A DNA stretch of 64,000 nucleotides from Stylophora pistillata (taxonomy: Eukaryota). Position 1 is the stretch's first letter; each line of letters begins with the position of its first letter. Below, piece after piece: positions 17,901-46,530 of the stretch. The translations under genes were made by a program, and so were the position numbers. The notes under the pieces are model-generated. The model did not search any database, was not told the origin of the DNA, and saw only the letters and a program-made list of their open reading frames with translations. The DNA lies in assembly GCF_002571385.2 (NCBI RefSeq), contig NW_019218060.1:155579-219578 (forward strand), in the 5' to 3' direction.

Positions 17901-20900
17901 ATAAAGTTGAAGTTATAGGCAGACAGGAAGAATTTAACCCTTCACACTCTTACATCAATATGCATATTCTCCATACTGTTCATTATTCATTTCCTAAGGT
18001 TCCTAAAGAGAATTTGTGTAGCATTCAGTTTGATTTTTAGTCGGTGATCTCTTCTCGTGACTGTAATGTTTGATTCAGGGGTGATATTGAAAGGAGAAAT
18101 TAGATGCTGGTCACTTGCAGGGGTTTAAGGATTAAGCTTAGAGTGGAAAGAGGGTTGCCCGTCAATGTCCAGTAGGGCATGGCCCATTGCATGAGACCAA
18201 ACAAATTATTCTCACTGAATTATATTATTAATACCTGTGGATTCTTGAAAAATGTGTCCTGGTTAGTAACGCATCCTCCTGCAGATGAACCAGGCTTCCA
18301 TTCGTTTTTGTGTTTAAAAATGTGCCATCGCTTGGATAAAGAGAAAATTGATGTATTCATCAAATGACACATGGTGGCCTTGGAGAAGTAACGGCAGAAA
18401 TCTTCAAACGACATCCTGTAAAAAATTAAAGAAAAGAGACTTAGACAACTGATTTGGACAAGAAGTTCTGAGGAAATGCGTGCAGGATGTTTGAGAATAA
18501 CTAAAACAAGGACAACATCAACAATTTTAGTAATGATAATGATTGTAAAATTACTGTAATAAATAATAATGATAATAAATATGACGAGTGAACAGTGACC
18601 AAGCATCTTAGAACATGGGTTGTAGAAATTGGAATCCCTAGAATCCCTAGTTAGCTACAATGGAAAGGTCTCATAAATCAGACGTTGTTTATTTACAGTA
18701 ACTGTGTGGAACAAGTAGAAACCCTGGTTAATACTAGGAATTCCCGAGAGTTCTTTTAATCAATGCAGATCTATGTGATATTTTTAAAGTATTCGCATGT
18801 ATCATAATTATGATCGATGTTCTTCTACTGACCAGAACTCGCCATCATCTTCGAAGTCAATTCCGAGCTTTCTCCTTACTTCTGCTTCAAGCTTGTTCCA
18901 CTCTTCTGAACTATGTAAACACAAAAACACAAAAACACAAAAGGACAAAACAAAAGGAAAACTCGACCTCATAAATAAGAATTCCCAAGCTTAAAATCGA
19001 CTCTAGGTCCTTTACCCATCACTCCACGCGCCATTCCATTCTTTTTGTCCCCAAGGATTTCTTAGTCGGAGCAGGTACAGATGTTCTCGATTAAACAGGT
19101 TGAATAAGCCGTCGCCCGTAGTGATCTGACCAAAGAAAAGTCAAACAAATCATTCCACTTTGTTACACGTGCTTTCCTGTGGGTATATGTAGCGGCTTTG
19201 TAATTCTTTTTCTCTGTTTCACTATAAGAAACTATGTTTTGTTCGCCATCCTGCACACTAAAAGAGAACTAAAACAGGGTGACAAACAAGCAACCGAACA
19301 GCAACAACAACAACAACAACAGCAAAACCAAAAACAGAAGCACACCATCAAAACTCTGAACAAAAAAAGAGTAACCAAAACGTTCTATTTTTACTATAAA
19401 AGCAGTCATATCTTCTCATAGCTCGATTCAAATTAGCTTGCGGCGAGGCGCCAAACTTCGCTTACCTTCTTTATTGCAGTAACACCGTATGCGTGTCCCA
19501 TTACCAAGCCAGTTTCTGTGCGTTTTTCCATTTCTTCATTGTTTTTAGCCTACAAACGTAGATTTTCCAAATATGAAATGGCTGCATAAATGAATAGAAA
19601 CAGAAACAAGGGACAGATACAATTAGCATTGCAAGAGTATTTACCGAGATTGAAGCACCAACAAGAGACTTGTTATCCATGGCCTTTTGCATGCTTTTGA
19701 AAAATTCTAGTCTTCTTTCTTCATCGTCATTGTAATTTGCATCCTTAAGGTTAACTGACTCGCACACCCCCCCTGTGAAATCAACCAGAGCGTCAGCGAT
19801 ATTGCCTGCCTCCAGAGCCTCGTAACTTCCATTCAATCTGAAATAAAAAATGTCGCGAGTGAGAATTCATGCATGTTGTTTGTTTAACAGGGGGATAAGT
19901 TTCTAAAGAGGCTTTCGCTCTGACAACGGGCTAATGCTCGAAACGTTAGCTTCATAAACTCTCAGTCGGTGGCCAATTCACATTATCAACTCAGTAGATT
20001 AAACCAAATTATCTTGTACCGATTATTCAACTTTGATTAAAAACACTATGGAGTTGAGTTTATCTAATAAACAGCTAATCGTTGTTTAACAAAACTGCGT
20101 GTTATGAACCGACCGTGATTAGTCGTTAACAATAATGCTTTCACTTACTTGGCGTAAGACTTTTCAAGTAACGCTCCCCAGAACTCATTCTTCACCGAGG
20201 AGTGGATGAAGACCAACTGACCATTAATTGTAGGAAGAAGATCATCGATCACCACTTCAGTCCACTCACCCTGCCGCCAAAACCGGAACCTGAAGATACC
20301 CTGGTACTTGCCAACGTCTTTTACATCCCACTCTTGGTTCTCCACGTCAGGAATGACCTAGCGTAGTAATTCAGGAATACCAAGATCATATCAAAGCGTG
20401 CTTTTGTTATATATATATTTTTCTCCTTCTTTTCTGCTATCGAGCTCTAGTTAGTTGTAGACCATGTAGAAGTCATGCCCTCAAGCATTAAGTTTGCTCT
20501 AACCGTAGGCTTTGGGGAGTTAGGAAGGTTTTCCTCTGAATGGATCCTATTTTTCTTCCTGCGACATGGAGTATCATTTCTTGTCTGGTATGAGATGCTG
20601 GTCAATTACACTACCCCTTTCCTGCTTACAATTTTAATTTCTAGTCTTTCGTTGAGTGAAGCATTGGAAAAGTAAAGCGTTTTGCCAATAGCACAACTCG
20701 ATTCCTCTGGTCAGCGGTCGGCGGAATCTGGCCTAGTGCAATGAACATTATGTATCGACTTTGTTGATGAGAAATCCGATTTTTCTTTCCCACCAATATC
20801 AGCTAAACAATATATTTAGCAAGTTATTTAAGGGATCTTGTTTGCCTTCTCCGGCCTTTCTCCCTTCCAGGCCACCCTATTTAATCCACCCCAAGACAGA

Positions 20901-23075
20901 CTCAGTATATGATTACCAGTACTATATATGTTTAGACTGTTCCCAGGAGGTTTCATGTTACCCAGAGATAGATTTAAGTTTAAGGCCGGTCACATGCATC
21001 TAGCAGCATGTTAGGCTCTTTTCAGTCAGTTGTATACCTTCTCCAAGAGTGAAGGCTCCAGGGCCAGAGTTGAACATGATGCCACAAACCAACAGTTTCC
21101 AAGTTTTCCTTGAGTGATGTCATGTCTGCTTGATCCGTCAACAAACAGGCTTGGAGGGTCTGGCTCGCAAATGTCCTTATAATGGAAAATATATTTTACA
21201 AATGAAATATACAATAGGCAGGGATGATATATCACCACCATCTCTAAAGTTAACCTTAATAAACCACTTGGTTTTCCTTATCACCATGTGCAGGATACCT
21301 ACCCAATCAAGATTTTTCAAAGCTATGCAAATTTGTTAACCAAGAATACTCCATGACAGCGAATGCAGGGGCGTGGTAATTTTTTTTTTTTTTTTTTTTT
21401 CGTTTTCGATGCCTTACATTTTTGTCCTGATGTCTTGCTTTTGTTTTATTTTTAATAGTTTTCTTTTACAAGTGTAGAGGAGAGCTTGAAGTCTTGTAAT
21501 CATTTCATTATTGTCATATTTATAAATTTATCATTATTTCCTTTTTTTAAACAAAGAGGCAGGTGGATGGAAGTCGCAGCATTCAAGGACTCCTAACTAC
21601 ACACTCGAGTGGGAAAGAGTGGAGTATTTATCGTCTGTCTCAGACATGAGGCAGTGAAAGAAAATTGATAATTTTACTGATCTTGAATCTTATTTTCTTA
21701 ATTAGATTGTTATTTTGCTTCTTGCTTTAAAAATTCTTTAACCGTAAGAATTAATCAAAAAATGGCTCGACTCGTCAGCTGACACCTTGTGATAATAGAA
21801 AATGAGAACTGACATAAACGTAAATATTTGAATTATCAAACGGGTGGCTGAAATGACATTGATCAACATACTTGGTCACTAGGTGATTTGCGCTTACGAG
21901 TCTATAAAGAAGATCACAAATTAACGTGGATTAAAGAGTATAGGTACCCATTTCTTTTTTTTTTTTTTTGGTGTTGCTTATTGAATAATTTGTTTTTGAA
22001 CTGGATCAGCACGAATATATGCTTATTCATATGCTTTTATCTCCCCCACCCACTGGGCAGTTTATTATAAATGTTATTACGTTATATTCTTGACGGAGTC
22101 TCAGTAAATAGTTTGGAACTGGAACTAAAGAGGCTAGTGAAATTAGACCCCAACTCCACTCTAAAGCATGAAACAAAATTTAATCTCCGTTGAACCTGAG
22201 GCATTTGAAAATGGTAGTTGACTTCCCAGACTGCCACCCAAAGCGTTCATTTTATTTCTCAATCACGCTCGCGTGAGTTTTGTTACGTATTTCAATATTC
22301 ATGAATTATCTGAATTAATGAAGCGGTCACCATTGTTGAGTTTACAATAAGTTTCAAAACAAAAACGTACTCTTCAAATCGCCCCACTAAAATCATGCAA
22401 ACCAAAGGTTGAAAATTAACAAGAAGCTCCTACAAATGTCAGGTTGTAGATCGTTCTTCAAGCATTAATCATTGGGGCTTGCCATCCTAGCGTTCAGTCT
22501 TCTCGTTTTTTAAAGGAGTATGTTAATTTAAAAAGTTTAACTCATCAGACAATAAACCCCCATTTATTTGCGTTGGTGACATTGCAAGATTGTTCCCTTC
22601 TATGACAGTTTTGATCGTCCGCTAAAATCGGATAGGATTAGAAGTTTTTCTTTGGAATTTTCTTAAAAGGGGGGCTTTGTTTGCTTTTTGTAAGCGGGAT
22701 GATCTGAGTTAGAACGTATGTTCGTAGTATGAAGTGACATACTGTAAGAAGTCTAACTATAAACAATTGACAAAAATTGATAATCCTCTGAAAAACATTG
22801 CTCTTACAAACCTACATGAAATCTCAGAATTGCGCATTGCCTTAATGCTTTCCTTGAAGCATGATATGGGAGACAGCTGAATAGAACGAAGACTAACGGA
22901 GCTTTAACAATACCTTAGGTCGTCGCCAATCGATTTGTTCTGGCGGTGCACGGCTGAAAAAGATCGAATTATCGTTCGCTGGAAATTCAGGATCTTCGAA
23001 CAGACGCTCTTCCTTTTCGCATTGTGACTTGAGTTTGCTGTAACGCTGGTTCTTGAAATAGTGCAGCTTTACCAT
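14942..23075 (-). CDS. CAPN5: Calpain-5-like cysteine protease (CysPc + domain III + C2), paralog A
   Basis: Multi-exon. Starts [20 protein letters not shown]. Catalytic triad motifs [16 protein letters not shown] and RNPWGQKEW; also [13 protein letters not shown] and SSAGGC..NPQ. C2 exons [10 protein letters not shown] and [14 protein letters not shown]; stop TGA at 14944-14942. No penta-EF-hand domain. Confidence 0.93.
19888..20015 (+). mobile_element. Penelope-type repeat fragment with degenerate hammerhead core
   Basis: GCT-CTGACAA-CGGGCTAATGCTC-GAAAC-GTT-AGC resembles a minimal hammerhead layout with core mutations. Related to the copy at ~29020-29245. Confidence 0.6.
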
Positions 23076-25010
23076 AACTCAAAAGTAAACGATTTCACGC
23101 TCAACTGGATTCATAAAAGCTTTGATCGCGTCAAAATTTTGATTTTATTAGTAACATCATCGCGACCTTCATTGATGGTGGCGCATGGGAAGGGTCTGGG
23201 TCGAGTCTAAAAATATATCTTGTTCTGTCTTATCCTATGAACTCATCAGAATTGGTAAGAAACATTTCGTCAGTTATCATATTAAAAGAGATCACTTTAA
23301 GGCTCATATCCCCACCCTCGTAATTTCGCTGGTAACAGCTCGCCTACACCTACTCCTCGCAGAGTAAACTTCATTAAGACTGGTCTGGGCAACTTCGCCC
23401 CCAATCCAAAAAGAAAAACTTTCAGTCTTTTGCTAAAATACCTCACATCAATGAAACGAAATAGTATGTCACAACTTCATTGCCAGCGTAAATTACCGCA
23501 GAAATCTCCATTTGTATCAATCACTCGTTCGCACACACATGCCACGCGCGCGACGCGTTAAACGTTCGTACATGCATGTCAGGCGCGCGACTCTTTTCAT
23601 CCCTTTGTTTAACTAACTGGAAACATACATAGTTCACTTCGTATTTGAAATTTATTTTTCACTAATTCCCCAATTCACGTAGTGTTACAAAATTGTTACG
23701 ATAGTTGTATACAGAAAAAAAAAATTAAACAAATAACCAGCCGCACCCGAAATTACGACCAGTTTACTGTCGTAAGATCAGTGTTCTTTCTTCATTGACA
23801 ACTTGGTAAGCTCTGTAACTTTATACGCTCTATCTTTTGTCATCTGTAATACATATGCCAAAATATGTACTGGTATATACCGTTTACTTAAGGTCCTTAC
23901 TTTTCTCATGTATTATTTCTGCAAAAACACCTAATGACGTTTTCAGCGTGTGTGAAATACTTCGAAAACAACTAACAGCTCACATGAAAGCTTAAAAATA
24001 CAATTCAAGCCTTTTACTCAAAGCCTGATTTCAAGGATTGAAGGTTAGCTAGGGTAAGTGAGCTTACACTTCTAACATAAATAATTATCATACTCCTTAG
24101 TGGCATTTAGCATGCCGGTGAAAAAGTTCAGAGAACTATTCACCAGCAAGCAGCCAAGCTATATTTTAGCGAGGGAATTTAAGTTTGCTAATTGCGTTTG
24201 CGATACTTAGCTTAATTTAGTGAGAGTACCTGGCGTATAAATGGGAAATACCTCTTTTAAATCTGATAAAGCCGGTACGGCTTTTAATGCTTTCCTAGCG
24301 ACTAGAAAAATACTTTTTGTATTCCTTTTAGAACTACAAAAACGATTAATAAAATTTTCTTCCCCATACTTACAATTTTGTGACAAATACAGTGCAAAAG
24401 AATCATCGACCGATTTTCTGGATCGTGATCTTTTTATTTTAAAAGCATGCTAATTTCCTATAAATTGCAATGTGGCTGTATTTCATTGAAAATATTCCAC
24501 AAAGGTCTTTAAGCGACAATCGCCTAAAGTTTCCCATTTCAACTGTGCTAAATTCTTTATTACCTGCAGCCCCATAGCTATCGACTAAACGCCATAGGTT
24601 TGAGTTAAATAACTTATTATAAAGTCTGTCCAAATCGGGTGTTGTCATGTCATTAGTAACTACCATGGCAAAGGTGTAAAAGATTCTTTTCTTTGTATAA
24701 TTATAACATTTATAATTATCAAAGAACAAAAAGGGAAAAAAATGCTACACACTGTCACATTTGTTTTCGTTCCCGCACCAAAGAAACAAGTGCTAGCCAC
24801 CTTAAAAACAAGCGTGACATTGGAACTTGCACACGGGTACTTACATTACGTCAGCGGCTACTTTCTGCAAGAACTACTTCCTAAATTGCGGCCAAACCTG
24901 AGAAATAGAAAGCGTCTTTGCACTTTATTCCTAACTAATTCCCTTTGGTCAGATGAAAGCAGGCATTGATAAGATCTCTCTTTCACAACGAAACATTATA
25001 ATTCAAATCA

Positions 25011-28000
25011 TTAGATGGCGAGCAGATCCTGGTAACATTTAACTTCCACGGTCACAACGCCAGGCATTTGTACCTGGTGATTTCGCATTCGTCCCATCAG
25101 CTGGTGTGTTTCTGTGACAGCTTTGTTGTTAATATCGATTGCTATCTTGGCTTGACCCATGAATGAGTCCCAGAACCAGTTGTAATCCCAAACCTGAATG
25201 AAAAGACGACGAGAAAGGCACTTACATAAGGACCTGTTGTCACGCGACAGCCATGTTGATAAACTACTTTCAAAAAGTATTACTACATAGAAGAGCTACG
25301 AAAATACGCGATCCTTTTTGGGGATATTGAATAAGTATACTTCTCGTGAAGACCAACTATGACACAGAAAAAGGTGTGACAATATTAAAATAACCCCACT
25401 GTGCATTAATTCTATATTGACGGTTAAACGATAAAGCTAGTAACTATCCTTACTTGTACAACCAAGCGAGATTTTTGAGGTCTCCTGACAAAAAACAGCG
25501 CACCAGTGTTCCACTGTGGATTCAACGAGTCTTTCTGAACAGGAGTTTTGACTTTTCGTCCCTCACAGCTGATCGTGGCGTATGGATCAGGCGCTGAAAT
25601 TATGACAAAATATAAAGAAATTATCATAAAAATAAAAATAATATACGCTTTACGTGCTGGAAGATCGAAACGACACGAAAGAACGAAACGACACGAAAGA
25701 ACGCTTAAAAAGAGGTGTTTATATTTATTACAAATTTTATTTGATTTGTAATAAATAAAAACACCTCTTTTCATTTAATCAAATCGGCGCTCTCTTATAG
25801 AACCCGAACAGACTCTCAACACCTAGCTATAGCACTACCTTGCGACCAATGCCGGTGGGGGGGGGAGGCGGGGTCGTAATAACGGTGAAATGAGATCCTT
25901 CCGAGAAAAAGTATCCACGAGTCCATGGAAAACGCCCGATTAATAGACTTCCCTTATCACAAGAGGTTATGTACGCATGGGGAACGAATCATGAGTTCGC
26001 ATGAGATGTGTCACCCACGATGGCCGTTCATTACAGGGCTTATTAGTGCTTCTGGTAAATTCAAACCACCTAATTAATTCAATAATTTTCCTAATTAGGA
26101 ACAACGCAGTTGGCGTTCCGATAAACCTTTCACTACTGGTAACAACGAGTTTGTTTACTTACTCATTGAAAGTCTGCTTGTTTTTTGAAGTCCGCCGGCT
26201 GATTTAACAGTAACGGAAAGCACGCAAAGCGGAGTACGGCATTGTGGGAAGCAGCAGAATATTTGACTTCCGGTGGAGTGCTCCTGGTTTAGAAACCTAC
26301 AGAAATAAGATAGGGATGAAAACTCTGACTTTAGAACAGTTGGTCAGTGCCAAGTACAGCGTTAGGTATGAGGATACTTACATTGCTTTTGAGGACTTTT
26401 CTGTGAATATTCTCATCAGAAATTGCCCAGCTTTGTTTTGTTCGTATGTGGATGGTATCACCACATATCTTCCTTTCTTGAAATGAAACTTGTTCACCAC
26501 TTCTCGGGCGTTGATGAAGATGGAATCACCAGCTTTTTCAAACATTGTATGTAAGCGATACTTTCTGTTTTCCTCCACCTAAAGCGTAAAAATCAGACTG
26601 TGAGCCGGCCAATGTGGACAGACAATGGCCAACACGACGCAAAACCAAACAATTAAGTTAACTTCTCTTTTACCAGACAGACAAACAGGCCAACAGACGA
26701 ACAAGTAGACAGAAACCCACGCATAGACCGACATGCGAAAAATGTGCAAGATGGTCAAATTAAATGCCAGAAAATGTTATGTTACGGTAATAATGGGCAT
26801 TAAGAAAAAACCAAAACATGACAAATATTTGATTTAACACAAAAGTATTCTGACAATTATGATTTGAACGGTCAGAAATGAATAGATCATCGGTAGCCAT
26901 TTTAGCAGTGTTACCTTCATAACAAAATATCCAATGGTGAGATTTTCTGCACCATGTTCTTTCTCCTTTCTTGTGTCTTCCTGCATCAGTGAGATCATCA
27001 CTTCACCTTCCTCTTTGACAGTGAAAGCATACTGACAAAATCATTGGTACAATTAATAGTAGTGTCAGGAACATAAACGCCTCCCGGTTTAGCTCAATTG
27101 GTTAGAGCGCCGGATTGTGTTGTGCGGGAGGTCGAGCCCCGGCCGGACCAATACTCATGGTCGTAAAATAAATGAGGAGAATTTGCTACCTTTCTCTATA
27201 ATCAAGAAATGGATAAATATTCTAGTGTTCTCGGATAAGGACGAATAAACCGTAGGCCCCGTCTCCTGCAGGGTTAGGGGTAGGAGACGTTAATTTCCCA
27301 CGCACGAGATTACTGTGTGGTGGATTTCCTCCCCTGGTGAGATGGGCGGCTGTTGGCCCTGAAAAGTCCCTATGGGGAGTGGTCAACCTATGTATGTGTA
27401 TGTGTGTTGTGATAATCAGAAAAATTCAGAGAAAAATATTTCTTGAGCCCAATGACACAAAGCTACTTCGGTGCTTATTTCTATTAAGTCTCGCCCATTT
27501 CTGGTAACCTCCAATCCCTCTTCCCCTGATACCATTTACATGCACCTGGGTGGGGAGGGAGAGGCATTGTAGAAGTAAAGTGTCTTGTAAAGACACAAGA
27601 AATATCTATTGCAAGGTTTGGGTTTTCCCACAGAAAAAAAAATGCGAGCCCTGCATAAAAATGTGGACACTACTTCAAACTTACCTAGCAAACTAAATGA
27701 TAGAATACAGGTAAATTAAAGATCACAGTATGATGTTATGTACCTGCGGGTTCTTAAGGAAAGTGCTTCTATTTTCAACACACCCACCAGCAGTGGAGCC
27801 TGGTGACCAGCGATAGTTATGCTTAAACACATGCCATCTGTTTGAGAAGGAAAAGATGGATGTGTTGAGGACATGGCACAAGGTGGCATTTGTGAAGTAT
27901 GTGCAGAAGTCTTCAAATGCCATCCTACAAAAAAACACACAAACAGTAAATATGGGCATATACCGAAGACAAAACATGCAAAGAGAAGAAGCAAAAGATA

Positions 28001-31000
28001 ATCTAAAACCAAAACCCTAAATAATAGGAAAATACAAATTATAAATAAAGTCTGTACTGACCAAAATTCTCCATCATTCTCAAAGACAATCCCTAACTTT
28101 TCTCTATCACTTGCTTTAAGCTTTTTCCACTCTTCAGAGCTAACATAATATGAATTCAAAATAGAAATCATAATTGTTATAAATGACAGTGGGATAAATA
28201 TTTTTGTAATAAGTACCATTATTATATTAAAATTATCTCTTAAACAAGGATATTGAATGAGAATAAAATAAAATAGTAACATTCAAAACAAATAGGAGGT
28301 AGTTTTCAGTTATCATTACTCATCACTCCATGGTCCATTCCACTCCTTTTGACCCCAAGGATTCCTCAGACGAATCATATAAAGATGCTGTCGATTGAAC
28401 AAACTGAAAAGACCCTCACCAATGGTGATCTGCAATAAACAAGTATATATGTATGGGTGTGTGTTTCAAATTTGTAGTTGGGTGTAAATCATTAAAAAGT
28501 ACATTTTTCAAGGATCAGTGGCTAAAAATTGAATATATATGAAAAATTTCTCTGAGTGGAGAAAACTAACCATATCAAATAAATTAACCATTCTTAGAAT
28601 ACATCTAATGCATATCATGCAGCCTAGAACCAACATCATTGCCTGCATGCAACTTGAGATTGTTATTGTTTCTACTTTGCTTTTTAATTTATTTGTTGTT
28701 GATTCTTTCTTTGAATTCCTTTTGTTTTTGTCACCTTCATTTTTCCTATCAGATCAAAAGTTACCTTCTTTACTGCTGTGACACCATATGCATGTCCCAT
28801 AACCAAACCAGTTTCTGTTCGCTTTTCCATCTCATCTCTATTTTTGATCTAATGGCAAAAAAAACATATATGTCAAAATAAGTTAGTCTTATATCCCTGT
28901 AATCCCTCATCATATTTTTGATTAGTATCATTATGTAGTAAGAATAAACTTATTTGCAGGGGTGAGTATTTAACACAACTACAATGTTTGCTATCTGTTG
29001 ATATAACCAAATTCACTATAATGGGGGTAAGTTTCTAAAGAAGCTGTGGTGCTGTGTCGGTGGGGGTAACAAGGTAATTTGGTTTTATCAACTAAGTTGA
29101 AATTCCAATTTTGCCACCATAAAGTGTTAAAAAGCTGATGTTTCAAGCATTAGCTCTTCCTCAGAGCATTAGCCCTTCGCTCTGATTAAGGGCTATTAAC
29201 ACTCCAAACAACAGCTCTTTAACTCTTTATGGTGGTCAAACTTAGTTATTACAACCAAATTACCAAATTCACTATAAGGCAACTTGTAAATCACAACTAT
29301 TTTGTTCCATTTTTATTATTTAAAATTTTCTCACATCTGACTATAATTTGCACAAGAGAAATCAAAAGTAATTGCAATCTTAACTTTAACTCCTTTCATT
29401 TCCCAATCAAGTTGTTATTCCTTGTGCATCTGACTGGTGTACATATGTGATGAGCATGCAAGTTCATACCTTCTATTATACAGCACTTACCCTTATTGAC
29501 GCACCAATCAGGGATTTATCTCGCATTGCTCTCTGCATACTTTTAAACAAGCCCAGCCTCTTCTCCTGATCTTGACCATAACCTCCATCCTTGAGGTTGA
29601 TAGACTCACAAACTCCACCAGTGAAATCAACTAAGGCATCACCAGTATTTCCTGCTTCTAAAGCTTCATATGAGCCTGCCATTCTTAAAAAGAAAAAAAA
29701 AAAGTGACCCATTTCCCTGCCTGACTCCATTGGAATAGAAAGTACTGCAGTAAGCCACTTTTAAATAATTTCCAAGAACTCTTCTTACTTGGCATAAGCT
29801 TTTTCCACCAAGGCACTCCAGAACTCATTCTTGTCTGTTGAGTGGATGTACACCAGTTTTCCAGCAATTGTTGGCAGAAGATCGTCAATAACAACTTCAG
29901 TCCACTGGCCTTGGCGGAAAAACCGGAACCTAAAGATCCCTTGGTAATTACCAACATTTTCAGGATCCCACTCCTGATGTTTCATATCTGGAATCACCTT
30001 GAAAAGGGGTAAAAATAATGAAAAAAAATGTTAAGTTATCTCAGATCTGTTGTTGACATGCTTGCCTTGTTTAACCAAGAGGAACTGAAAATCATCATTA
30101 GTAAGCAGTGCATTGTCATAACATCTTGAGAAATACAAACCTTCTCTAACAGAGATGGCTCTAAAGCCAATGAGGAACATGCTGCCACAAACCAACAATT
30201 CCCAAGTTTGCCTTGTGTGACATCATGGCTGCTCATCCCATCTACAAACAGCTGTGGGGGGTCTGGGGCACAGATGTCCTGAAGAAAATGCAGAAAACAG
30301 GTTCTATCACCTTTTGCTCATAATTATCTGATTTTGACCTTTTACTGTTTAGAGCCCACACCATTGCAAGGTTGTAAAGGAATTTGATGTTGGTGTTTTA
30401 TAGAAGTATAGAGAGAATCCCAAGAGGATTAACCAGGACTAAAAAAAAATTGATCCCTCTCCCCTCACATGACTGACCACATGTAACTGGAAACTTCTGA
30501 TGTCTAGATTAAATGTCTTTCAAAATTCAAACAATGGTTGTGCCAGTCTAGACTGGCTGCCAAGGTTGACATAAAAAGTATGCAAACATTCTATTTTCCT
30601 TTTTATGAGAATTTGCAGTAATTTAATCAAAGTTGTGTTTATATCTTAGTTTCCCCTCAGTTTTCCACCCCTACATTTTTTTTAACACTTTTTTAACCCA
30701 TTAACGTCCAGTGCACCCGTATGCGCCCATGGGGACCCACACCCTTTCTACGCCCTGTGACGTCATCAATTTTATCTCTGGAGCACAAACTCGAGCATGT
30801 ACTTGAACGGGTTGAAAATATCTTGCAGACGATACCAGAATGAGCGCAATTGAGTGGAGGAGATTGGAGAAATAGCCAAAAAACCGTGTCACTTTGACTG
30901 GAAAATCTGCACGAAGATCGTGTTTCACTACCCACCTACCTTTCCGAGCATGTGCTTTGAAAATAATGAGTAGTTTCTGAAAAATCTCTACACCAAAATG

Positions 31001-32552
31001 AAGCCTACTCAATTTCCAGCAAGTGAGGAGAAACTTTAGGCAAGGAGAGGGGAAAAAAAGGGCAGGAGAAAGAGAGAAAAGTAGAAGTCGTAAGTGGGGC
31101 GTGACTTTTCAACCCAAAAACTATGTCCAAATTTTGCTCTCTGCGCGTGCCCGAGATTTTCAGGCCGCCATTTTGCATTTGGATCGAAAGGCCGTCGAGT
31201 GCACGAGCTGTCAAGTGGTTTTTGGTAAGTTTGAGCTTTTAAAACCCCAACAGTGACCCGAAATCTGCTGGACTAGCTTCAAAACACAGTTTTCTACAAA
31301 AGCTGCGGCCATTAATGGGTTAAACCACATCCTTCCCTCTTCTTTGACTCCTCCAATACTTATCAAGATGTGGGTGCAAATCAATAGATAAGGGGGGTGG
31401 GGAAGGAATCGGCGGGGAGTTCACAGTACAGTCTGGTAAGTTCAACATTATATAAAGAATTTAATTACACTAGAATGGCCGCTAACAAATTTCTTGCATT
31501 GTTTTTGCTCATTTATAGCACAATATTGCTTCACCATGACTCTATATGGGGCTGGTTGATCACGATGCAATATCTGAAAATGTGTGAATTGGACGCGAAC
31601 CAACGTAAAAACCCAATTATAGTACATACAATATAACATTTTAAACCTCTTAACATTTAGGGGAACAACAAAATATTTGAAACTTAGGTTTCAAATTCAT
31701 GTAAACAAAAATCGAAAAAATTCCAATTATTATCTCAGCTCTGTGCTTTGGAACAGAACTTGTCACTGATGCACTGCGAAAGCAAATGGTTCAAGTGACG
31801 ATAATAGAATAACTAGTCACTAATTAATTTACATTATGTTTATGTTTCAAGTCAGAAGTCTCATAAAATTACAATGCGTTAGTACAACGGCACGATTAAA
31901 AAAGGAAATAATGTGACTGTGATTGCAAAGTAGCGCTGGAATGCAGATAGAAAAACAAAGTGAAACCCTCTGCTGTGAAAGTTCGATTCTACAATTGTGT
32001 ATTATGGACGGGCACGAGAATTTTAAACAGCTCGCTCCTTACAAGAGCTTAGTGACACGACAATACTGGGGGGATTAATATATTAATTGAATGTCTAACG
32101 TTGGCTAGCGTAAATATGTTTGCACTTTCAAAAGACTGTGGGTTTAAGTGCGTATTTTGAAAGGGAGAATAAGTCGATCAACCTTTCGCTCAACGTTCTT
32201 GATAGGCAACACAATGTAGAGCAAAATATTTGAATGAATTCAACAGCCACTAAATGAGCACAAAGTCTGCCTATGATCCGAGGCATATCGGATCATTGCT
32301 ATGTTCGAGCATAGTTACGAGACAGCGTTAGTTAATCTACAAAATTCAAACAAAGGAAAGTCTAGCAGAAAATTGATGTCACGATACCTTCGGTCTCTTC
32401 CATTCAACGGGCTCGGGAGGTGTCGCTCGACTGAAGTACAAAGACTTCGTCTCGGGTGGAAATTCAGGATCAACAAAAAGTCTTTCATCTCTTTCACATT
32501 GTGCCTTCAGCTTGCTGTAACGTTGATTTTTGAAATAATGTAATTTCACCAT
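25011..32552 (-). CDS. CAPN5: Calpain-5-like cysteine protease, paralog B
   Basis: Same exon organisation as paralog A. ATG at 32552 ([20 protein letters not shown]). Motifs [16 protein letters not shown] and [10 protein letters not shown]2 exons [10 protein letters not shown] and [14 protein letters not shown]; stop TAA at 25013-25011. Confidence 0.93.
27084..27265 (+). mobile_element. tRNA-derived SINE (truncated)
   Basis: A-box TAGCTCAATTGGTTAGAGCG with a degenerate B-box, followed by a non-tRNA body. No complete cloverleaf. Confidence 0.7.
29020..29247. mobile_element. Penelope-type inverted repeat pair (degenerate)
   Basis: Starts like the 19888 copy (GGGGxTAAGTTTCTAAAGA). Contains opposed decayed hammerhead-like units (AGCTGATGTTTCAAGCATTAGC..TCAGAGC / GCTCTGATTAAGGGCTA) and CCACCATAAAG...CTTTATGGTGG arms. 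Confidence 0.55.
30697..31319. mobile_element. piggyBac-type MITE in calpain B intron 1
   Basis: TTAA at 30693-30696 and 31320-31323 flanks the termini CCCATTAA...TTAATGGG. Confidence 0.8.
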
Positions 32553-32850
32553 GTTTTTCTTTAGCGAGAACCTTCAATAATAAATCTGAACTTCAAGCTT
32601 TCGAGGTTGATGACTAAAACGTTTGTTACAAGCCTCGAAATCATTCGCGCGGAAATAGATGAAAACGCACATCAAGAAAATCTGCGACGCAATTGGCTAA
32701 CCTAAGACCGGAAATCGAATTGACACCAAATGGTGTTTTTGTGGGCAGCGGGTTCTTCATGGCAACTGAATGTTTACAAATGTGCCGCCATCTTCTGAAA
32801 TTTGCTTACGTCTATGATTGTTTTATCTTTCGAAGTTGAGTTATCTAACA
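32553..32850. promoter_or_regulatory. Bidirectional promoter/5'UTRs between calpain B and ANKRD42-like gene
   Basis: Divergent ATGs at 32552 and 32851. Reverse CCAAT at 32692-32696, ETS CCGGAA at 32708-32713, RFX X-box GTTCTTCATGGCAAC at 32752-32766 and YY1 GCCGCCATCTT at 32784-32794. Confidence 0.7.
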
Positions 32851-40726
<7,876 letters not shown>

Positions 40727-41353
40727 ACCGCTGGATTTGTGACTACGGTGGGCTCTGGTTCAACCATTTGTTAGATTTGTTTTGATTTTCCAAGTTCTTC
40801 TCCTTGGATACCTTTGTGATGGTGGCTAATTGGTCTCCAGATTTCTCAAGTTTTTTGTTTCTGTTTTTCAAAGTTTACTTCTGTTCACTTTATTTCCTTT
40901 CATGTTGTTGTTTTATTGCTTTCCATACAAGTACCCTAACCTTTATTAGTTTTGAATCATTAAATTACGGAGGTATACTATAATTTTTCCCAGGAGGAGT
41001 GGTGGGGGGTCTTTGGTCATCGTTAGAGTTGAAAAGTTATGTACATTTTTCAGTTCGTATTGCATTTTTTTTTCTTTTGTCACCTTCTCTATGTGCTTTC
41101 GGACTCCGAAAGAAAAGCGTTTCATCGACACGTATTGCTTGGTGTTCTGGTTAAGCTTTTAGCTTTTGCACATATTCAAATGGTCCAAACTCGACTGAAT
41201 TTAATGAAAGTGGAGAGGAGCCACCCATTTCCCCCTTCAATCCATTCAATATTTTACAAATTTCATTGCAGTCGTCTGAATTTCAACGATCGTCAACCTC
41301 GACACAGCAAACTGCGTTACGACGCAAGAATTNNNNNNNNNNNNNNNNNNNNN

Positions 41354-41628
41354 AATTTCTGGGGTTTCCTACCTTGTTTTACGATTTTAGTAAACGCATC
41401 TGTCACCTCTTTCCCCGTTTTCTTTTTAAGGGGTACTGCCCACGCATATTTAGAAAACGCATCAACCACGACCAAAATGTATCGGAAACCTTTATTTTCT
41501 TTGGCAATTATCTGTACTTCTATCAAATCGGATACCCACTGTTCGTCAATATCAAAGACTAACACAGGTGCAAACTCTCCTCGGCGGCGACGCGATTTGT
41601 GTAGAGTGTAAGCTAAATTCTTTTCCAA
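41354..41628 (-). pseudogene. Polinton-type rve integrase fragment
   Basis: AYTLHKSRRRR..DIDEQWVSDL..GFRYILVVVDAFSKYAWAVPLKKKTGKEVTDAF..GRKPQK, which includes the first catalytic Asp region. Truncated by the gap; the N-terminus appears deleted or frameshifted. Confidence 0.85.
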
Positions 41629-41629
41629 T

Positions 41630-42017
41630 TAGCTAGCTGTCTCAGCGGTTCTACTGATGTCATCTCAGGGTTTGGGATATCTGAGGGACGCATCTCCTCT
41701 TGCTTCACAGGATTATCTTGGGCGTGGTACGCATCTACAATTTTCCTCCACCCTTCTTTCCACGCCTCTTCCTCTTCCTCTGTCCTCTATGAAGGGGTTG
41801 GGATGTCTAAGGTAAGATTTTTAGGATTTTTCTTCTTGGTCCAGTTTTTCTTGCCTTTAACCTCTTGGGCTACTTGAGGCACACCATCGATCATGACCTT
41901 TCCATCAGGGTACTTTTCGGTCCATTCTTTCTTAAAATGCAAAGGTTCTCCCTTGTCATAGGGGTGATGTCTCTTGCCTTTGACTCCTTTGGTTGGTTTC
42001 TTCATTAGAGTCTCCAT
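41630..42017 (-). pseudogene. Charged ORF upstream of integrase (element-encoded, disrupted)
   Basis: METLMKKPTKGVKGKRHHPY... ends at a stop at 41787, with coding-like sequence continuing beyond it. TATAAAG on the minus strand at ~42073-42079. Confidence 0.45.
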
Positions 42018-42099
42018 CCTGCACATCAGAACTGCTGCTTCTTGACTGTGGAAAGTAGTGAAACCGTTCTAGCTTTATACACTCGAGAACAATACCCTA

Positions 42100-42292
42100 T
42101 AGTTTGATTGACAGCCATTGTTTTACGCTAAAAAAAGAGACGCGACGCCAACCTTGATTGACAGCCATTGTTTTACAAGAGACGCGACGCTAGCAAAGAG
42201 ACGCGACGCCAACTTTGATTGACAGTCATTGTTTTTTAGGATGAGACGCTAACTCTGATTGACAGCAATCGTTTTTTAGGACGCGACGCTAT
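42100..42292. promoter_or_regulatory. Tandem array of TGATTGACAG and GACGCGACGC motifs (divergent promoter of the element)
   Basis: TGATTGACAG at 42105, 42155, 42216 and 42256, interleaved with GACGCGACGC-type motifs and flanked by TATA-like boxes on both strands. Confidence 0.65.
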
Positions 42293-42352
42293 CTATTGTT
42301 TCCATTTTCCTATATATCGACTGGTACTGACATGACACATGTATCATTCACC

Positions 42353-42652
42353 ATGAACCCTAGTTTAGAAACGAACCCTAAATTTGGTGTGATAGCCATG
42401 GATGAAATTTTAGATACCATGGAATTTCACTCTGACGACGATTCCTTGAGAAGAGTGATTCGAGATGCAGAGCAGTACTTAATCGACTTTGCACCCGATG
42501 AGAACGATTTCGATAGAAGAACCTGGGAATTACGTAGTTAAGTCATACAGGCATTCTTGAACTTTGTACGATATCACCGCGATTGTGCAATTTCCTCTTG
42601 TAAGAAACGCCTCCTATTCACAGATGATGAATCCACGCCAATCAAAAAGTGA
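42353..42652 (+). pseudogene. Small element ORF A (one in-frame stop)
   Basis: MNPSLETNPK...ELRS*VIQAFLNFVRYH...PIKK*. Single TAA at 42539-42541; the frame continues beyond it. Confidence 0.6.
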
Positions 42653-42728
42653 TTGACAGCTAGCTTCTATAAAACACTACTGATTCCTATACTTTTTCAT
42701 CATTTGATACTGCACGCGAGTCAGAACG

Positions 42729-43297
42729 ATGCCTTCCTCCATTCATACTCGTCCTTAAACTGCGGCAAGTGAAATCATTTGTTTGCTTTACGATTTGAGA
42801 GTAGAAGCTACTATAGTAGATTTAGACTACAACTTAAACACCATGAAAGACTTGGCTCTGATACGTGAAGCACCTACACCAGAAATAAAACAAGCTCAAA
42901 CTGAAGTGTTTGACGCTTTCAGAAATTACCTTCGAGTACTTAAAGATTCAGCCAAACCTCTGGGAGTGACTAAAGACTTGGAAGAATATCCATCCAAGGC
43001 GTGTGTGGTACTTGACGAAGTCCTCTCTTGTGTAGACGAGCGAGCCAAACACACTGAATTGGAAATAATCAAATCTCGCATCCATCATTCCATGGTGTAT
43101 GATTCTTACGGAATCAGTGATGACGAGAAACATTCAACAAAGTCTACAACGGCGTGATGACGGCTTTCCTGAACTTTGTACGTTATTGTGAAGACAAACC
43201 TCCCCTCCCCCCCGAGATTCCTCTGACTATAGTTCTGGGTACGGCAGTTATGATGACGAACAAGATCGATGATTGGCAGCTGTCAAGTTTATATTAA
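42729..43297 (+). pseudogene. Small element ORF B (internal duplication; stop and frameshift)
   Basis: ATG at 42729 followed by an early TAA. Contains EVFDAFRNYLR and, after a frameshift near 43130, VMTAFLNFVRYC. Confidence 0.55.
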
Positions 43298-43348
43298 AAG
43301 ACTTTACTCACACAATTTACCTCATTTCAGCACAGACCTTACTTCAAC

Positions 43349-43606
43349 ATGTTTGAACATTTGGACGACAACCCTAGACGGTGTAGAGTTGCTTTAGATG
43401 ATTTACTACGCGTCGTAGAGAAAAATACAGACTATGATGACTACTGTCGAATGCAGAGGCATGGGAACCAGTACATACAAGCTCACGAACTTACACAAGT
43501 AAAACACGACGGTGATGAACAACTGTTTAAACTGTACGCAGATGTCATGAAAGCTTTCCTCACTTACACGCAACATTGTGAACAGCTGTACAGGAAAAAG
43601 TTGTGA
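43349..43606 (+). CDS. Small element ORF C, hypothetical helical protein
   Basis: 85 aa with DVMKAFLTYTQHC, paralogous to ORFs A and B. Preceded by TGATTGGCAG, a TATA-like box and TCATT. Confidence 0.55.
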   Translation: MFEHLDDNPRRCRVALDDLLRVVEKNTDYDDYCRMQRHGNQYIQAHELTQVKHDGDEQLFKLYADVMKAFLTYTQHCEQLYRKKL

Positions 43607-43993
43607 GCAGCGACGACGATGAAGTGTTTGTGGATCCTAAAAAGACTGAAGACATTAAGGAAGACGAATGGCCTGAATCTTTTCCAAAACATTTAATTGC
43701 TATTATGAACTCTTAATTTGCACCTTGTATATAGCAAAACAATAAAACCTTGTTATCACCTATTCACATTTGTATGTATTTTCTTGCCCATGCGCAAGTT
43801 ATAATCAAACTATACCACATGCGTACGAAAATCTTTTTGAGATTCTTCTAATACCTATTATTTGCTTAAAGACTTATTCAGTTACCAAAAACACCCAGCG
43901 ATACACAAACGCATACTATAGCGTCCATTCACTTTTTCCTACTTAATCCCTCTGCCATCTTGCATTCTTTTGTTTTTGAGAAAACCATTAAGT

Positions 43994-44889
43994 CCTAAAA
44001 AACCTAAAACCAACACTAAAAACCTAACCCTAAACACTAACCCCCAACCCTACCCNTAATAACCCTAACCCTAATAACCCTGACCCTAATAACCCTAACC
44101 CTAGTAACCCTAACACTAATAATCCTAACCCAAGTAACCATAACCCTAGTAACCCTAACCCTAAAATAACCCTAACCCTAGTAGCCCTAACCCTAATAAC
44201 CCAAACCCTAGTAACCCTAACACTAGTAGCCCTAACCCTACTAACCCTAACCCTAGTAACCCTAACCCTAGTACCCCTAACACTAATAACCCTAACCCTA
44301 CTAACCCTAACCCTAGTAGCCCTAACCCTAATAACCCTAACCCTAGTAACCCTAACCCTAGTAGTACTAACCCTAACCCTAGTAACCCTAACCCTAGTAG
44401 CCCTAACCCTAGTAACCCTAACCCTACTAACCCTAACCCTAGTAACCCTAACCCTAGTAGCCCTAACCCTAATAACCCTAACCCTAGTAACCCTAACCCT
44501 GGTAGCCCTAACCCTACTAACCCTAACCTTAGTAACCCTAACCCTAGTATTCTAACCCCACTAACGCTAACCCTAGTAAACCTAACCCAAGTAGCCCTAG
44601 CGCTATTAACCCTAACCCTAGCAGCCCTAACCCTACTAACCCTAACCCTAGTAACCCTAACCCTAGTAGCCCTAACCCTAATAACCCTAACCCTTGTAAC
44701 CCTAACCCTAGTAGCCCTAACCCCACTAACCCTAACCTTAGTAACCCTAACCCTAATATTCTAACCCCTCTAACGCTAACCCTAGTAACCATAACCCTAG
44801 TAGCCCTAACGCTATTAACCCTAACCCTAGCAGCCCTAACCCTACTAACCCTAACCCTAGTAACCCTAACCCTAGTAGCCCTAACCCTA
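43994..44889. repeat. Telomere-variant tandem array, ~15-bp unit TAACCCTAACCCTAG
   Basis: CCCTAA hexamers regularly interrupted by 3-nt inserts (TAG/TAA/TAC). Runs into the N gap at 44890. Confidence 0.95.
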
Positions 44890-45429
44890 NNNNNNNNNNN
44901 NNNNNNNNNNNCTATGACGTAAAGTAGCTAACGAATACATTGTTACTGGTGTTATTGTTGTTGTAGTCCTGTTTTTGTTGTTTCTCCCTAGCCCAGCTTG
45001 GGAATACCCTTACCTAGGAAGATAAATGCCCAATACCCATGTTGGTTGAAGACTGCGTTCGTTTGTTGGTATAACTAAGGGAATAGTTGGTGTTTATCAT
45101 TTAAAAAGGGACGCTTCGATTACTATCAGCCTGTAAAATAAGCCCTAAAATACAAGCTTTCTACGTCTATCTTTTCTTAATACTTTATTGCTTAATGTAT
45201 CTTAAAGGAAACAAGCTCGTTAGATAAGACTCTCTGTGGCCCTGTTTCTCTGCACTTGCTAAATGCTATCTAAAGTATAGTACGTAGCAAATAAAGACCA
45301 TAAGGAAATGTAAAGAGTGAATGAATCAAGCATCAGGCGAAAAACAAGCAATTGTGAATGAAGCAGTACGTTATTATTAAGTGTTGCAGTCATACAGGAA
45401 AAAGAACTCATGAACTATATGTGTTCATC

Positions 45430-46530
45430 TGAAACTGGGTGTGTTGGAACCTAGGCTAAAGCCTGAAACTAAGCCCGCATTGGAACTGACTTACACGCGA
45501 GAATTTAAAACTGAACTAGGAGTACACTGCATACAAAACTAAGCTCACATTCTAACTGAGCAATATTCACATTTAAAACTGAACTAGGCATGGACTGATG
45601 AAGCTCATATGATATTAAAACTGGGTTATGCACACAAAAAACTAAGTTTGCATTGTAATTGAGTTGTAAGCTCATTTAAAACTTAACTTAATACACCCTA
45701 GAAACAAAATAAACTCACATTGTAATATATGATTTATGCAAGCAGTTAAAACTGAACTTGGTTGACACAGTAAACAAAACTAAGCCCACGTTGTAGCTAA
45801 GTTTTACACGCATTTAAAATTCAAATCAAGGGTATATTAGAAACAACACTAAGTTTACATTATAACAGAGTAATGCCTACCTTTGAAACTGAACAAGGCG
45901 TATACCAGAATGACTTAGATCCCGACGTATCTTAGTAATGTGTGCAATTAACACTGAACTTAGCGCACATTGGAAGTAAAACTAAGCTTGCATTGTTAGA
46001 GAGTTATGTGTGTATTTTAAACTGGACTAGGCGCATACTGGATACAAAAACTAGCTCACACTGTAACAGAGTTATGCACGCATTAAAAACTGATCACAAT
46101 AGAGAGAAAAGTAAACTTATATTGTAACAAAGCTATGCGTACCGCTTAAAACTCAACTAAACTAAGCATAAACTAGACAGAATACCAAGCTCACATTGTA
46201 AGTGAGGTACGAGTCCATCTAAAGCTATATCACACATAGACTGGAAATAGGCTAAAGTCACAATGTGAGTTATTTTCGCGCATATAGAACGGAACAAGGC
46301 TTTTACAGAAATGCAACTAAACTTGTATGAATAGAGTCGTACGGGCATTTAAAACTGAACTAAGTTTAAACATGAATCAAAACTAAGATTATATCGTAAC
46401 AAAGCTTTGCGCGATTTAAAACTCAATTAGTTAATATAAGTTAACGTTAGGCCTACACTAGAAAAAAGAATAAGGTTCACATTCCAACAGAGTTATAAAT
46501 GCAATAAAAGCAGAACAAGGGGAACACTGA
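45430..46530. repeat. Degenerate ~69-bp tandem satellite (~15 units)
   Basis: Recurring TTAAAACTGAACTAGG...AAAACTAAGCTCACATTGTAAC..GAGTTATG at roughly 69-bp spacing. Confidence 0.85.

Follow-up and report, generated by a model that had tools for sequence, protein, structure and literature searches.

Does a virus-derived element of a stony coral end in telomere-like DNA of its own, or does it lie next to such DNA? The question is raised by a 3.5-kb contig (positions 41354 to 44889) within a stretch of 64,000 nucleotides from Stylophora pistillata (NCBI RefSeq assembly GCF_002571385.2, NW_019218060.1, positions 155,579 to 219,578 of the forward strand; this whole stretch is called the window), in which a Polinton-type element is followed by repeats derived from CCCTAA. 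To judge by its sequence, the part from 41354 to 43716 is a decayed fragment, about 2.4 kb long, of a stony-coral Polinton of the adintovirus/eupolintovirus type. The fragment adds one more decayed copy to a known kind of Polinton, and it lies beside a telomere-like minisatellite. For the origin of this minisatellite, an element-borne terminal repeat is ranked first, with a host neighbour close behind.

A decayed Polinton fragment and its small-gene family

The Polinton-type integrase that an earlier note had reported at this locus is borne out by the match to PF00665 (Table 1) and by close relatives in the same coral. The rve integrase expected of a Polinton is present as a partial gene, its 5' part missing at an internal join at 41628 and its 3' part severed by a gap of Ns. 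In a search for longer relatives, 85 proteins were matched at E<=1e-10 among 184 candidates, and the three best were Stylophora pistillata proteins of the F54H12 type, 86-89% identical; the same three were the nearest rows in a quick version of a tree (92 columns, 82 of 86 rows), which was used solely for nearest neighbours. A chromodomain, which is a hallmark of Polinton integrases, was present in 33 of the 85 matches, as counted from the table of matches. Open reading frame (ORF) U, for which no Pfam family was found, is fused to the integrase via an internal deletion. Residues 1-12 of the protein record P0004 matched 41663-41628, the end of ORF U, at 100% (E 0.055, a short match), while its residues 275-365 matched the integrase from 41628 onward. 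Since P0004 matches on both sides of 41628, 262 intervening residues have been lost in the window copy.

The virus-like small genes of the earlier note were likewise recovered, as three plus-strand genes A, B and C whose relatives are fused to an integrase or to a region resembling the OTU domain and pPolB. Gene A was 78% identical to P0113 and 83% to P0109, and it matched the N-terminal part of P0043 (E 5e-11), a protein that continues into a Polinton integrase. Gene B was 65% identical to P0110 over 128 aa, 73-81% to P0114 in two frames, and 69% and 64% to P0118, while both frames of gene C were matched by P0001 and P0002 at 71-73%. The three genes are related to each other: the local score of A against C was 87, which none of 1000 shuffles reached, and the end of gene B scored against gene C above all 1000 shuffles. 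In a profile search, 33 representatives (50% identity) of the family were obtained at E<=0.001, and 28 of them matched back to 42300-43720; for the other five (P0124, P0126, P0131, P0132 and P0137), the reverse comparison with the window found nothing at E<1e-3, and three of these look unrelated. The gene order was the same in joined records, P0108 and P0109 containing A then B, and P0110 containing B then C. In P0118 the end of gene B stands behind a region that resembles the OTU and DNA_pol_B_2 clusters; this resemblance was seen in a low-confidence Atlas model with template modelling (TM) scores of 0.48-0.64 and is taken as a candidate only. An OTU-type N-terminus is a hallmark of adintovirus PolB (PMC8502044). 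Finally, in P0123 an A-like domain is combined with a region rich in cysteine that is shared with P0004 (49%, 127 residues).

The first 85 aa of gene C were predicted by AlphaFold2 to form three helices, with a predicted local distance difference test (pLDDT) value of 86.6. For A, B and C no convincing family was found in Pfam or NCBIfam. Atlas matches for gene B stayed under 0.9, and a BFVD structure search with the small-gene model gave 0 matches at E<=0.001. The PDB-wide search returned generic helical hairpins only, the best with Z 9.1 over about 60 residues, which is below the trusted level for helical models. P0118 had no match among PDB sequences and no phage match. When five aligned gene C sequences were used to scan the prokaryotic genomes of GTDB, 50 pattern matches were returned, none of which was confirmed by tblastn, a result uninformative on corals. 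Taken together, it is a solid conclusion that A, B and C are an unannotated three-helix accessory family that marks a coral Polinton group and is arranged in tandem behind one promoter-like motif.

Copies of this motif lie in the divergent intergenic region between ORF U and gene A, which has a CpG observed/expected ratio of 1.45. Each copy of its repeat contains TGATTGACAG, which we take to be inverted CCAAT-box-like. The consensus TGATTGRCAG had six matches in the 64 kb, all on the plus strand and all within the element (42105-43279), with four before gene A, one before B and one before C; the chance expectation was 0.39, and none of 100 shuffles reached six. It sits 78-79 nt 5' of the start codons of B and C and is followed by TATA-like sequence. 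TGATTGRCAG looks like a putative viral promoter motif shared by the three genes.

Three premature in-frame stops, two frame changes (Table 1) and one internal deletion were present, and the Polinton copy is dead. Over 602 codons, the three stops correspond to roughly 3.3% neutral change (95% interval 0.7-9.7%). Among the ORFs of the window and contig, genes for a polymerase, ATPase, protease or capsid were not seen, the fragment stopping at the gap, and no tyrosine recombinase was found by Pfam among the ORFs of the contig, which lacks most of the element. In the window no match was obtained for the C-terminal parts of P0004-P0006 and P0036, nor by tblastn for the OTU-like part of P0118, the contig ending before the element core; the predicted model of P0005 was of low confidence (pLDDT 30). 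Rfam gave 0 matches across 40000-50000.

The fragment resembles the stony-coral polintoviruses (Adintoviridae/Eupolintoviridae; Stephens et al. 2024, PMC11131425) in its rve integrase and its coral host, and relatives of its small genes occur joined both to an integrase and to an N-terminus of OTU/pPolB-like type; it differs from them in that the window copy is only a decayed end of 2.4 kb. These families include the taxon 'Stylophora coral adintovirus' (taxid 2707292). Decayed Polintons are common in stony corals, so that the fragment itself is ordinary. The main text of PMC11131425 contains no mention of telomeres, tandem repeats or satellites.

Table 1. Features of the element, of the adjoining array and of the host exon at the left gap (positions in the window)
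Feature	Position	Strand	Remarks
Host ANKRD42 coding exon, severed by left gap, outside element	41272..41332	+	19/19 residues identical to P0091
rve integrase, middle piece only	41354..41628	-	PF00665, E 1.3e-8, above curated cut-off
ORF U, upstream of the integrase, 5' part of its gene only	41629..42017	-	in-frame stop 41789
Divergent intergenic region, four copies of a ~40-bp repeat	42084..42291	.	repeat family D11; Tandem Repeats Finder period 40
Gene A, paralogous to genes B and C, helical family	42353..42652	+	in-frame stop 42539
Gene B	42729..43210	+	in-frame stop 42756; frame change near 43127-43142
Gene C	43349..43716	+	frame change near 43603-43606; stop codon 43714-43716
Non-coding tail	43717..43990	.	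34% GC; ~275 bp; AATAAA at 43741; no Maverick 3' end motif
Indel-rich telomere-like edge	43991..44055	+	left of the single N; 65 bp
Single N, ambiguous base or assembly join	44056	.	where indel-rich sequence gives way to the regular array
15-bp minisatellite in which CCCTAA alternates with a 9-mer (CCCTAGTAA or variants of it)	44057..44889	+	runs into gap

The 15-bp array and its relation to telomeres

Tandem Repeats Finder reported the array at 44046-44889 with a period of 15, 55.9 copies and a score of 1126. The 6-mer CCCTAA alternates strictly with a 9-mer, and the variation among 54 units falls mostly at positions 12 and 15. CCCTAA was counted 53 times, twice in succession on 7 occasions and three times in succession on none, and the best ungapped match of the array to four telomere units was 17/24. 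A higher-order duplication of 209 bp was also present (44471-44680 against 44680-44889, 201/210 identical); the strict alternation and this block together indicate that amplification took place at the level of the unit. Of the description as a CCCTAA-derived array, the tandem arrangement holds, with a period of 15, while a run of CCCTAA with variants does not, the 6-mers being separated by 9-mers.

Coral telomeres consist of (TTAGGG)n (PMC10235076), and those of Acropora reach up to 16-20 kb (PMC12314368). No long uniform (TTAGGG)n tract of the kind that makes a true telomere was found, nor was a perfect telomeric tract such as stands in the termini of human herpesvirus 6 (HHV-6) and Marek's disease virus present in the assembled 845 bp of array. 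On its G-strand the array reads TTAGGG, then TTA and CTAGGG; the C-rich strand is the plus strand and reads away from the element, as the earlier note had said. With this polarity a chromosome end would need to lie on the element side, and the scaffold, on which the placement of the contig is doubtful, has genes on both sides. A telomere healed onto the broken end of the element, which that note had also discounted, is ruled out by the polarity and the unit structure. We infer that the array is a minisatellite produced by unit and block duplication and not by telomerase; it is not a telomere.

The array type stands alone in the window. The string CCCTAACCCTA had no further occurrence in the 64 kb on either strand, and no such array was found elsewhere in it. 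A 41-base array pattern had 0 matches in the prokaryotic genomes of GTDB, which is uninformative on corals. Array strings had 0 matches in 12 of the 17 supplementary files of PMC10236652, array and peptide terms had 0 matches in the part of the PMC8502044 supplement that precedes its sequence files, and 0 matches were found in the 4,040 characters of the PMC11131425 supplement.

It is very unlikely that the locus is the centromere-side junction of a telomere-targeting Polinton, that is, of an element that carries telomere-like repeats or inserts into telomeric tracts. A C-rich strand leading away from the element would fit a centromere-side junction in a telomeric tract. YTAGGGTTR is the half-site motif of TRF, and the G-strand contains 63 matches to it together with 16 non-overlapping G-quadruplex motifs in 833 bp. 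TTAGGG and CTAGGG, the two hexamers of the array, dominate HHV-6B pvT1, and the T1 of this virus mixes the same two units (PMC8492063). Against such targeting stand the coral telomere sequence, since the array never has three units in a row, and the integrase, which is of the ordinary Polinton rve type. The degenerate part of the array adjoins the element, whereas telomere variant repeats lie on the centromere side. In addition, the scaffold is gene-dense on both sides, and one locus only is at hand.

HHV-6A and HHV-6B, with T1 and T2 (PMC8492063), and Marek's disease virus have a viral terminus with TTAGGG and CTAGGG-type repeats, and the polarity in the window is that of a centromere-side junction; they differ in using direct repeats and perfect (TTAGGG)n for homologous integration, while the window element has a 15-bp unit and a DDE integrase of its own. 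HHV-6 integration is ascribed to the perfect T2 repeats (PMC8492063), and none were seen here. The telomere-inserting nimaviruses (Nimav-1_LVa and the majaniviruses; PMC7016691, PMC10871703) are likewise endogenous double-stranded DNA viruses beside telomere-type repeats in an invertebrate host. In these viruses the true telomere motif flanks every copy, and a dedicated tyrosine recombinase is encoded (PMC10871703), whereas the window holds one copy with a non-canonical 15-mer and an rve integrase, and no such recombinase was seen among the ORFs of this incomplete element. In a protist, virophages and Polinton-like viruses occur near telomeric repeats, and the subtelomeric copies are nearly all virophages (bioRxiv 10.64898/2026.07.28.741278).

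The proposal of the earlier note that either an array within the element's terminal region or an insertion into an array would suggest a telomere-associated Polinton lineage does not follow from this locus: the array is a minisatellite and not a telomerase-type tract, interstitial telomere-like sequence is reported to be ordinary in corals (PMC10236652), the scaffold is gene-dense, and there is one locus.

From the element end into the array

The non-coding tail, estimated before at about 250 bp, was measured from the last stop codon of gene C to about 43990 (Table 1). Four windows in the upstream tail were not array-like, their scores being reached by 211-452 of 500 shuffles. Nothing similar to the tail was found in the rest of the window or among 50,697 phage records, and the contig to the right held no significant repeat of it, direct or inverted (125 and 89 of 500 shuffles, respectively). 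None of three published Maverick 3' end motifs was found within 43600-44889. One of them, CTCTCT, occurs at 45230-45235, 320 bp past the right gap, which is within chance (0.27).

Contrary to the description of one ungapped contig, a single N stands at 44056, where the regular array starts, and the repeats do not become regular gradually. The change is a step: 43996-44055 matched the 15-mer at 51 of 60 positions with 7 gap openings, while each of the 14 blocks to the right of 44056 had 0-1 per 60 nt. The 70 bp left of the N had a local array score of 42, which none of 500 shuffles reached, and they carry one specific array variant; thus some telomere-like sequence is already present before the N. 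In the right contig, 44912-45010 showed no significant edge of the array, whether degenerate or inverted (25-187 of 500 shuffles), and among 8 tests one right-contig window, 45100-45200, gave 6 of 500 shuffles.

An assembly artefact, in which a repeat contig was joined or extended into a satellite at 44056 and the 3.5-kb contig was misplaced, is an unlikely source of the junction. The step in gap openings speaks for it. The array-like 70 bp on the element side speak against it, as do the N itself, which can be read as one ambiguous base inside a 15-mer, and another single N at 47023, which lies in non-array sequence.

The reading that we prefer, tentatively and at rather less than an even chance, is that the tail and the array both belong to the terminal non-coding region of the element itself, within a terminal inverted repeat (TIR) or immediately inward of one. 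On this reading the fragment is the integrase-side end of a dead Polinton copy. Its integrase and ORF U point inward, and a divergent cassette of three paralogous genes points outward and ends in a polyadenylation signal. The array would have arrived with the element through ordinary integrase-mediated insertion and may have broken the short-read assembly; slippage and unequal exchange, and not telomerase, would have lengthened it and kept its units alike. Its telomere likeness would belong to the repeat unit, and no telomere targeting would be implied.

Position and age mildly favour a terminal region of the element over a host array. In vertebrate Mavericks the core modules face the centre and accessory regions flank them, and beyond these come TIRs, 46-1,447 bp in length (Barreat and Katzourakis 2021, PMC8097293); the order of integrase, ORF U, outward accessory cassette and tail fits one Maverick arm, and thus the array begins at the expected position of a TIR. 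Since no 3' end motif was found in 43600-44889, no end of the element is visible before the array. Had the two 209-bp blocks been identical when the element inserted, they should by now differ by twice the neutral change estimated from the stops; their difference of about 4% falls within that value and is compatible with their presence at insertion. The array-like sequence on the element side of the N also favours this reading. As the 64 kb hold no other array of the kind, one that lay less than 300 bp away by chance would be uncommon locally.

Several points weigh against an element-borne array. The likeness to vertebrate Mavericks extends to the inward integrase, the outer accessory region, the non-coding terminus and the mostly degraded copies, while their end motifs ((AGT)2/(ACT)2, (AG)3/(CT)3 and (AC)3A), the second arm of the TIR pair and the 6-bp target-site duplication were not demonstrable in the window; the argument from architecture is thus one by analogy, borrowed from vertebrate elements. 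The accessible text of PMC8097293 describes no telomere-like array. No published telomere-like array in Polinton TIRs or termini was found in a search that left most subscription papers and the Repbase reports outside. The link between array and Polinton rests on one locus, with no flank of a second copy, and an element end eroded or truncated inside the tail would likewise be without a motif. A mis-join is allowed by the N at 44056 together with the sudden shift in the type of error, and the interstitial telomeric sequence and the Porites satellite known from corals make a host origin plausible.

Host origin is a substantial, though lesser, possibility. The array would then be host DNA that abuts a decayed Polinton end without targeting, whether as a telomere-like minisatellite at an interstitial site or as the tandem core of some other, unrelated element of the non-autonomous kind; the Polinton would have inserted beside the array, or the repeat would have come later. 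A weak 15-nt inverted pair (43933-43947 / 43987-44001, 80%) just before the array is in its favour, since such a pair stands at the 5' end of Helentron-type non-autonomous elements; the pair was not significant, the best self-inverted match in the tail being reached by 41 of 500 shuffles. Interstitial telomeric sequences occur in Porites, Pocillopora and Stylophora assemblies (PMC10236652), coral polintoviruses are abundant, with 1 to >1,700 regions per genome (PMC11131425), so that varied neighbours are expected, and 96% of vertebrate Maverick loci are degraded, many without discernible TIRs (PMC8097293). On the other side, the junction is not a sharp terminus and has no end motif, and the array type was not found in the rest of the window. 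As tandem telomere-like DNA inside a chromosome, the coral interstitial sequences and the 188-bp telomeric-palindrome satellite of Porites (PMC10236652) resemble the array; they differ in that the array has a 15-bp unit and a 209-bp block, is not palindromic and directly adjoins a Polinton end.

A wider proposal goes beyond the element-borne array of this copy. A coral Polinton family might have a telomere-like 15-bp array in its terminal repeats, which would bind host telomere proteins or recombine with telomeric or interstitial tracts, giving a telomere-associated lineage and a possible source of coral telomere-like satellites. This proposal we consider improbable, though less so than telomere targeting. 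If the array were the terminal repeat shared by a family, it would be a Polinton end made of telomere-like units, parallel to the telomeric repeats of herpesviruses, and an origin for some interstitial telomere-like satellites of corals; it would also be relevant to assays of telomere length in corals, in which signal from interstitial sites has to be discarded. Should copies also cluster at chromosome ends, they would form a telomere-associated Polinton lineage, of which no description was found in the literature searched.

Gaps, placement and neighbouring sequence

As previously noted, the contig is bounded by gaps on both sides, with Ns at 41333-41353 (21 N) and 44890-44911; a third gap lies at 48244-48264. 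The earlier caution about mis-scaffolding is strengthened by the single N at 44056 and by the left gap, which truncates an exon of the host gene ANKRD42. The exons of this gene run from 32940 to 41328, with close matches named from Acropora, Actinia and Nematostella, and no splice donor stands before the Ns. The next ~32-36 residues of 6/6 ANKRD42 homologs were not found in the window (scores 33-38 against self-scores of 156-193), while the preceding segment, used as a control, was recovered for 5/6; the gene is thus short of its final ~33 codons in the window. The left gap thus interrupts both the ANKRD42 exon and the integrase, and its 21 N are too short for both missing parts, which implies a longer gap, a misplaced contig or a joining deletion.

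These observations also favour the assembly artefact considered above, as do overlaps of 4 bases (41329-41357; chance 0.007) and 3 bases (44887-44914; chance 0.026) between the contig ends at the first two gaps, the third gap having 0. Misplacing the contig alone, however, would leave the link between element and array intact. The overlaps suggest that the gaps are nominal, or that reads supported joins whose overlap was too small for merging. The placement of the element on the scaffold is doubtful. If it is right, the element is interstitial in a gene-dense region; the GC content of the window is 38%.

Further features were observed in the window. An intron of ANKRD42 contains a near-perfect inverted repeat at 37461-37752 (132-bp arms, 99%, 28-bp loop). 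Upstream, two tandem calpain genes with C2 domains lie at 15600-32600, about 9.3 kb apart and with exons 71-84% alike, and a ROCO-type gene is represented at 5985-9816 by a HEPN_DZIP3 exon (E 7e-43) and, after it, a Roc-COR frame of 777 codons. Collagen-like exons lie to the right of the element. The contig to the right of the array holds an old, degenerate tandem repeat of about 68 bp at 45497-46529 (families D3 and D6). The ORF severed by the third gap showed weak similarity to an exon at 55 kb (30 of 1000 shuffles), and paralogy is not claimed. Directly after this gap, an element resembling a miniature inverted-repeat transposable element stands at 48266-49068, with 236-bp inverted arms (88%) that hold 52-bp tandem repeats. 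Two minus-strand open frames of 152 and 316 aa with no Pfam match follow at 49335-50812, and the 152-aa frame has what we take to be a candidate resemblance to the starts of Harbinger-type transposases. A 19-bp tandem repeat at 56451-56661 comprises 11 copies with 93% matches.

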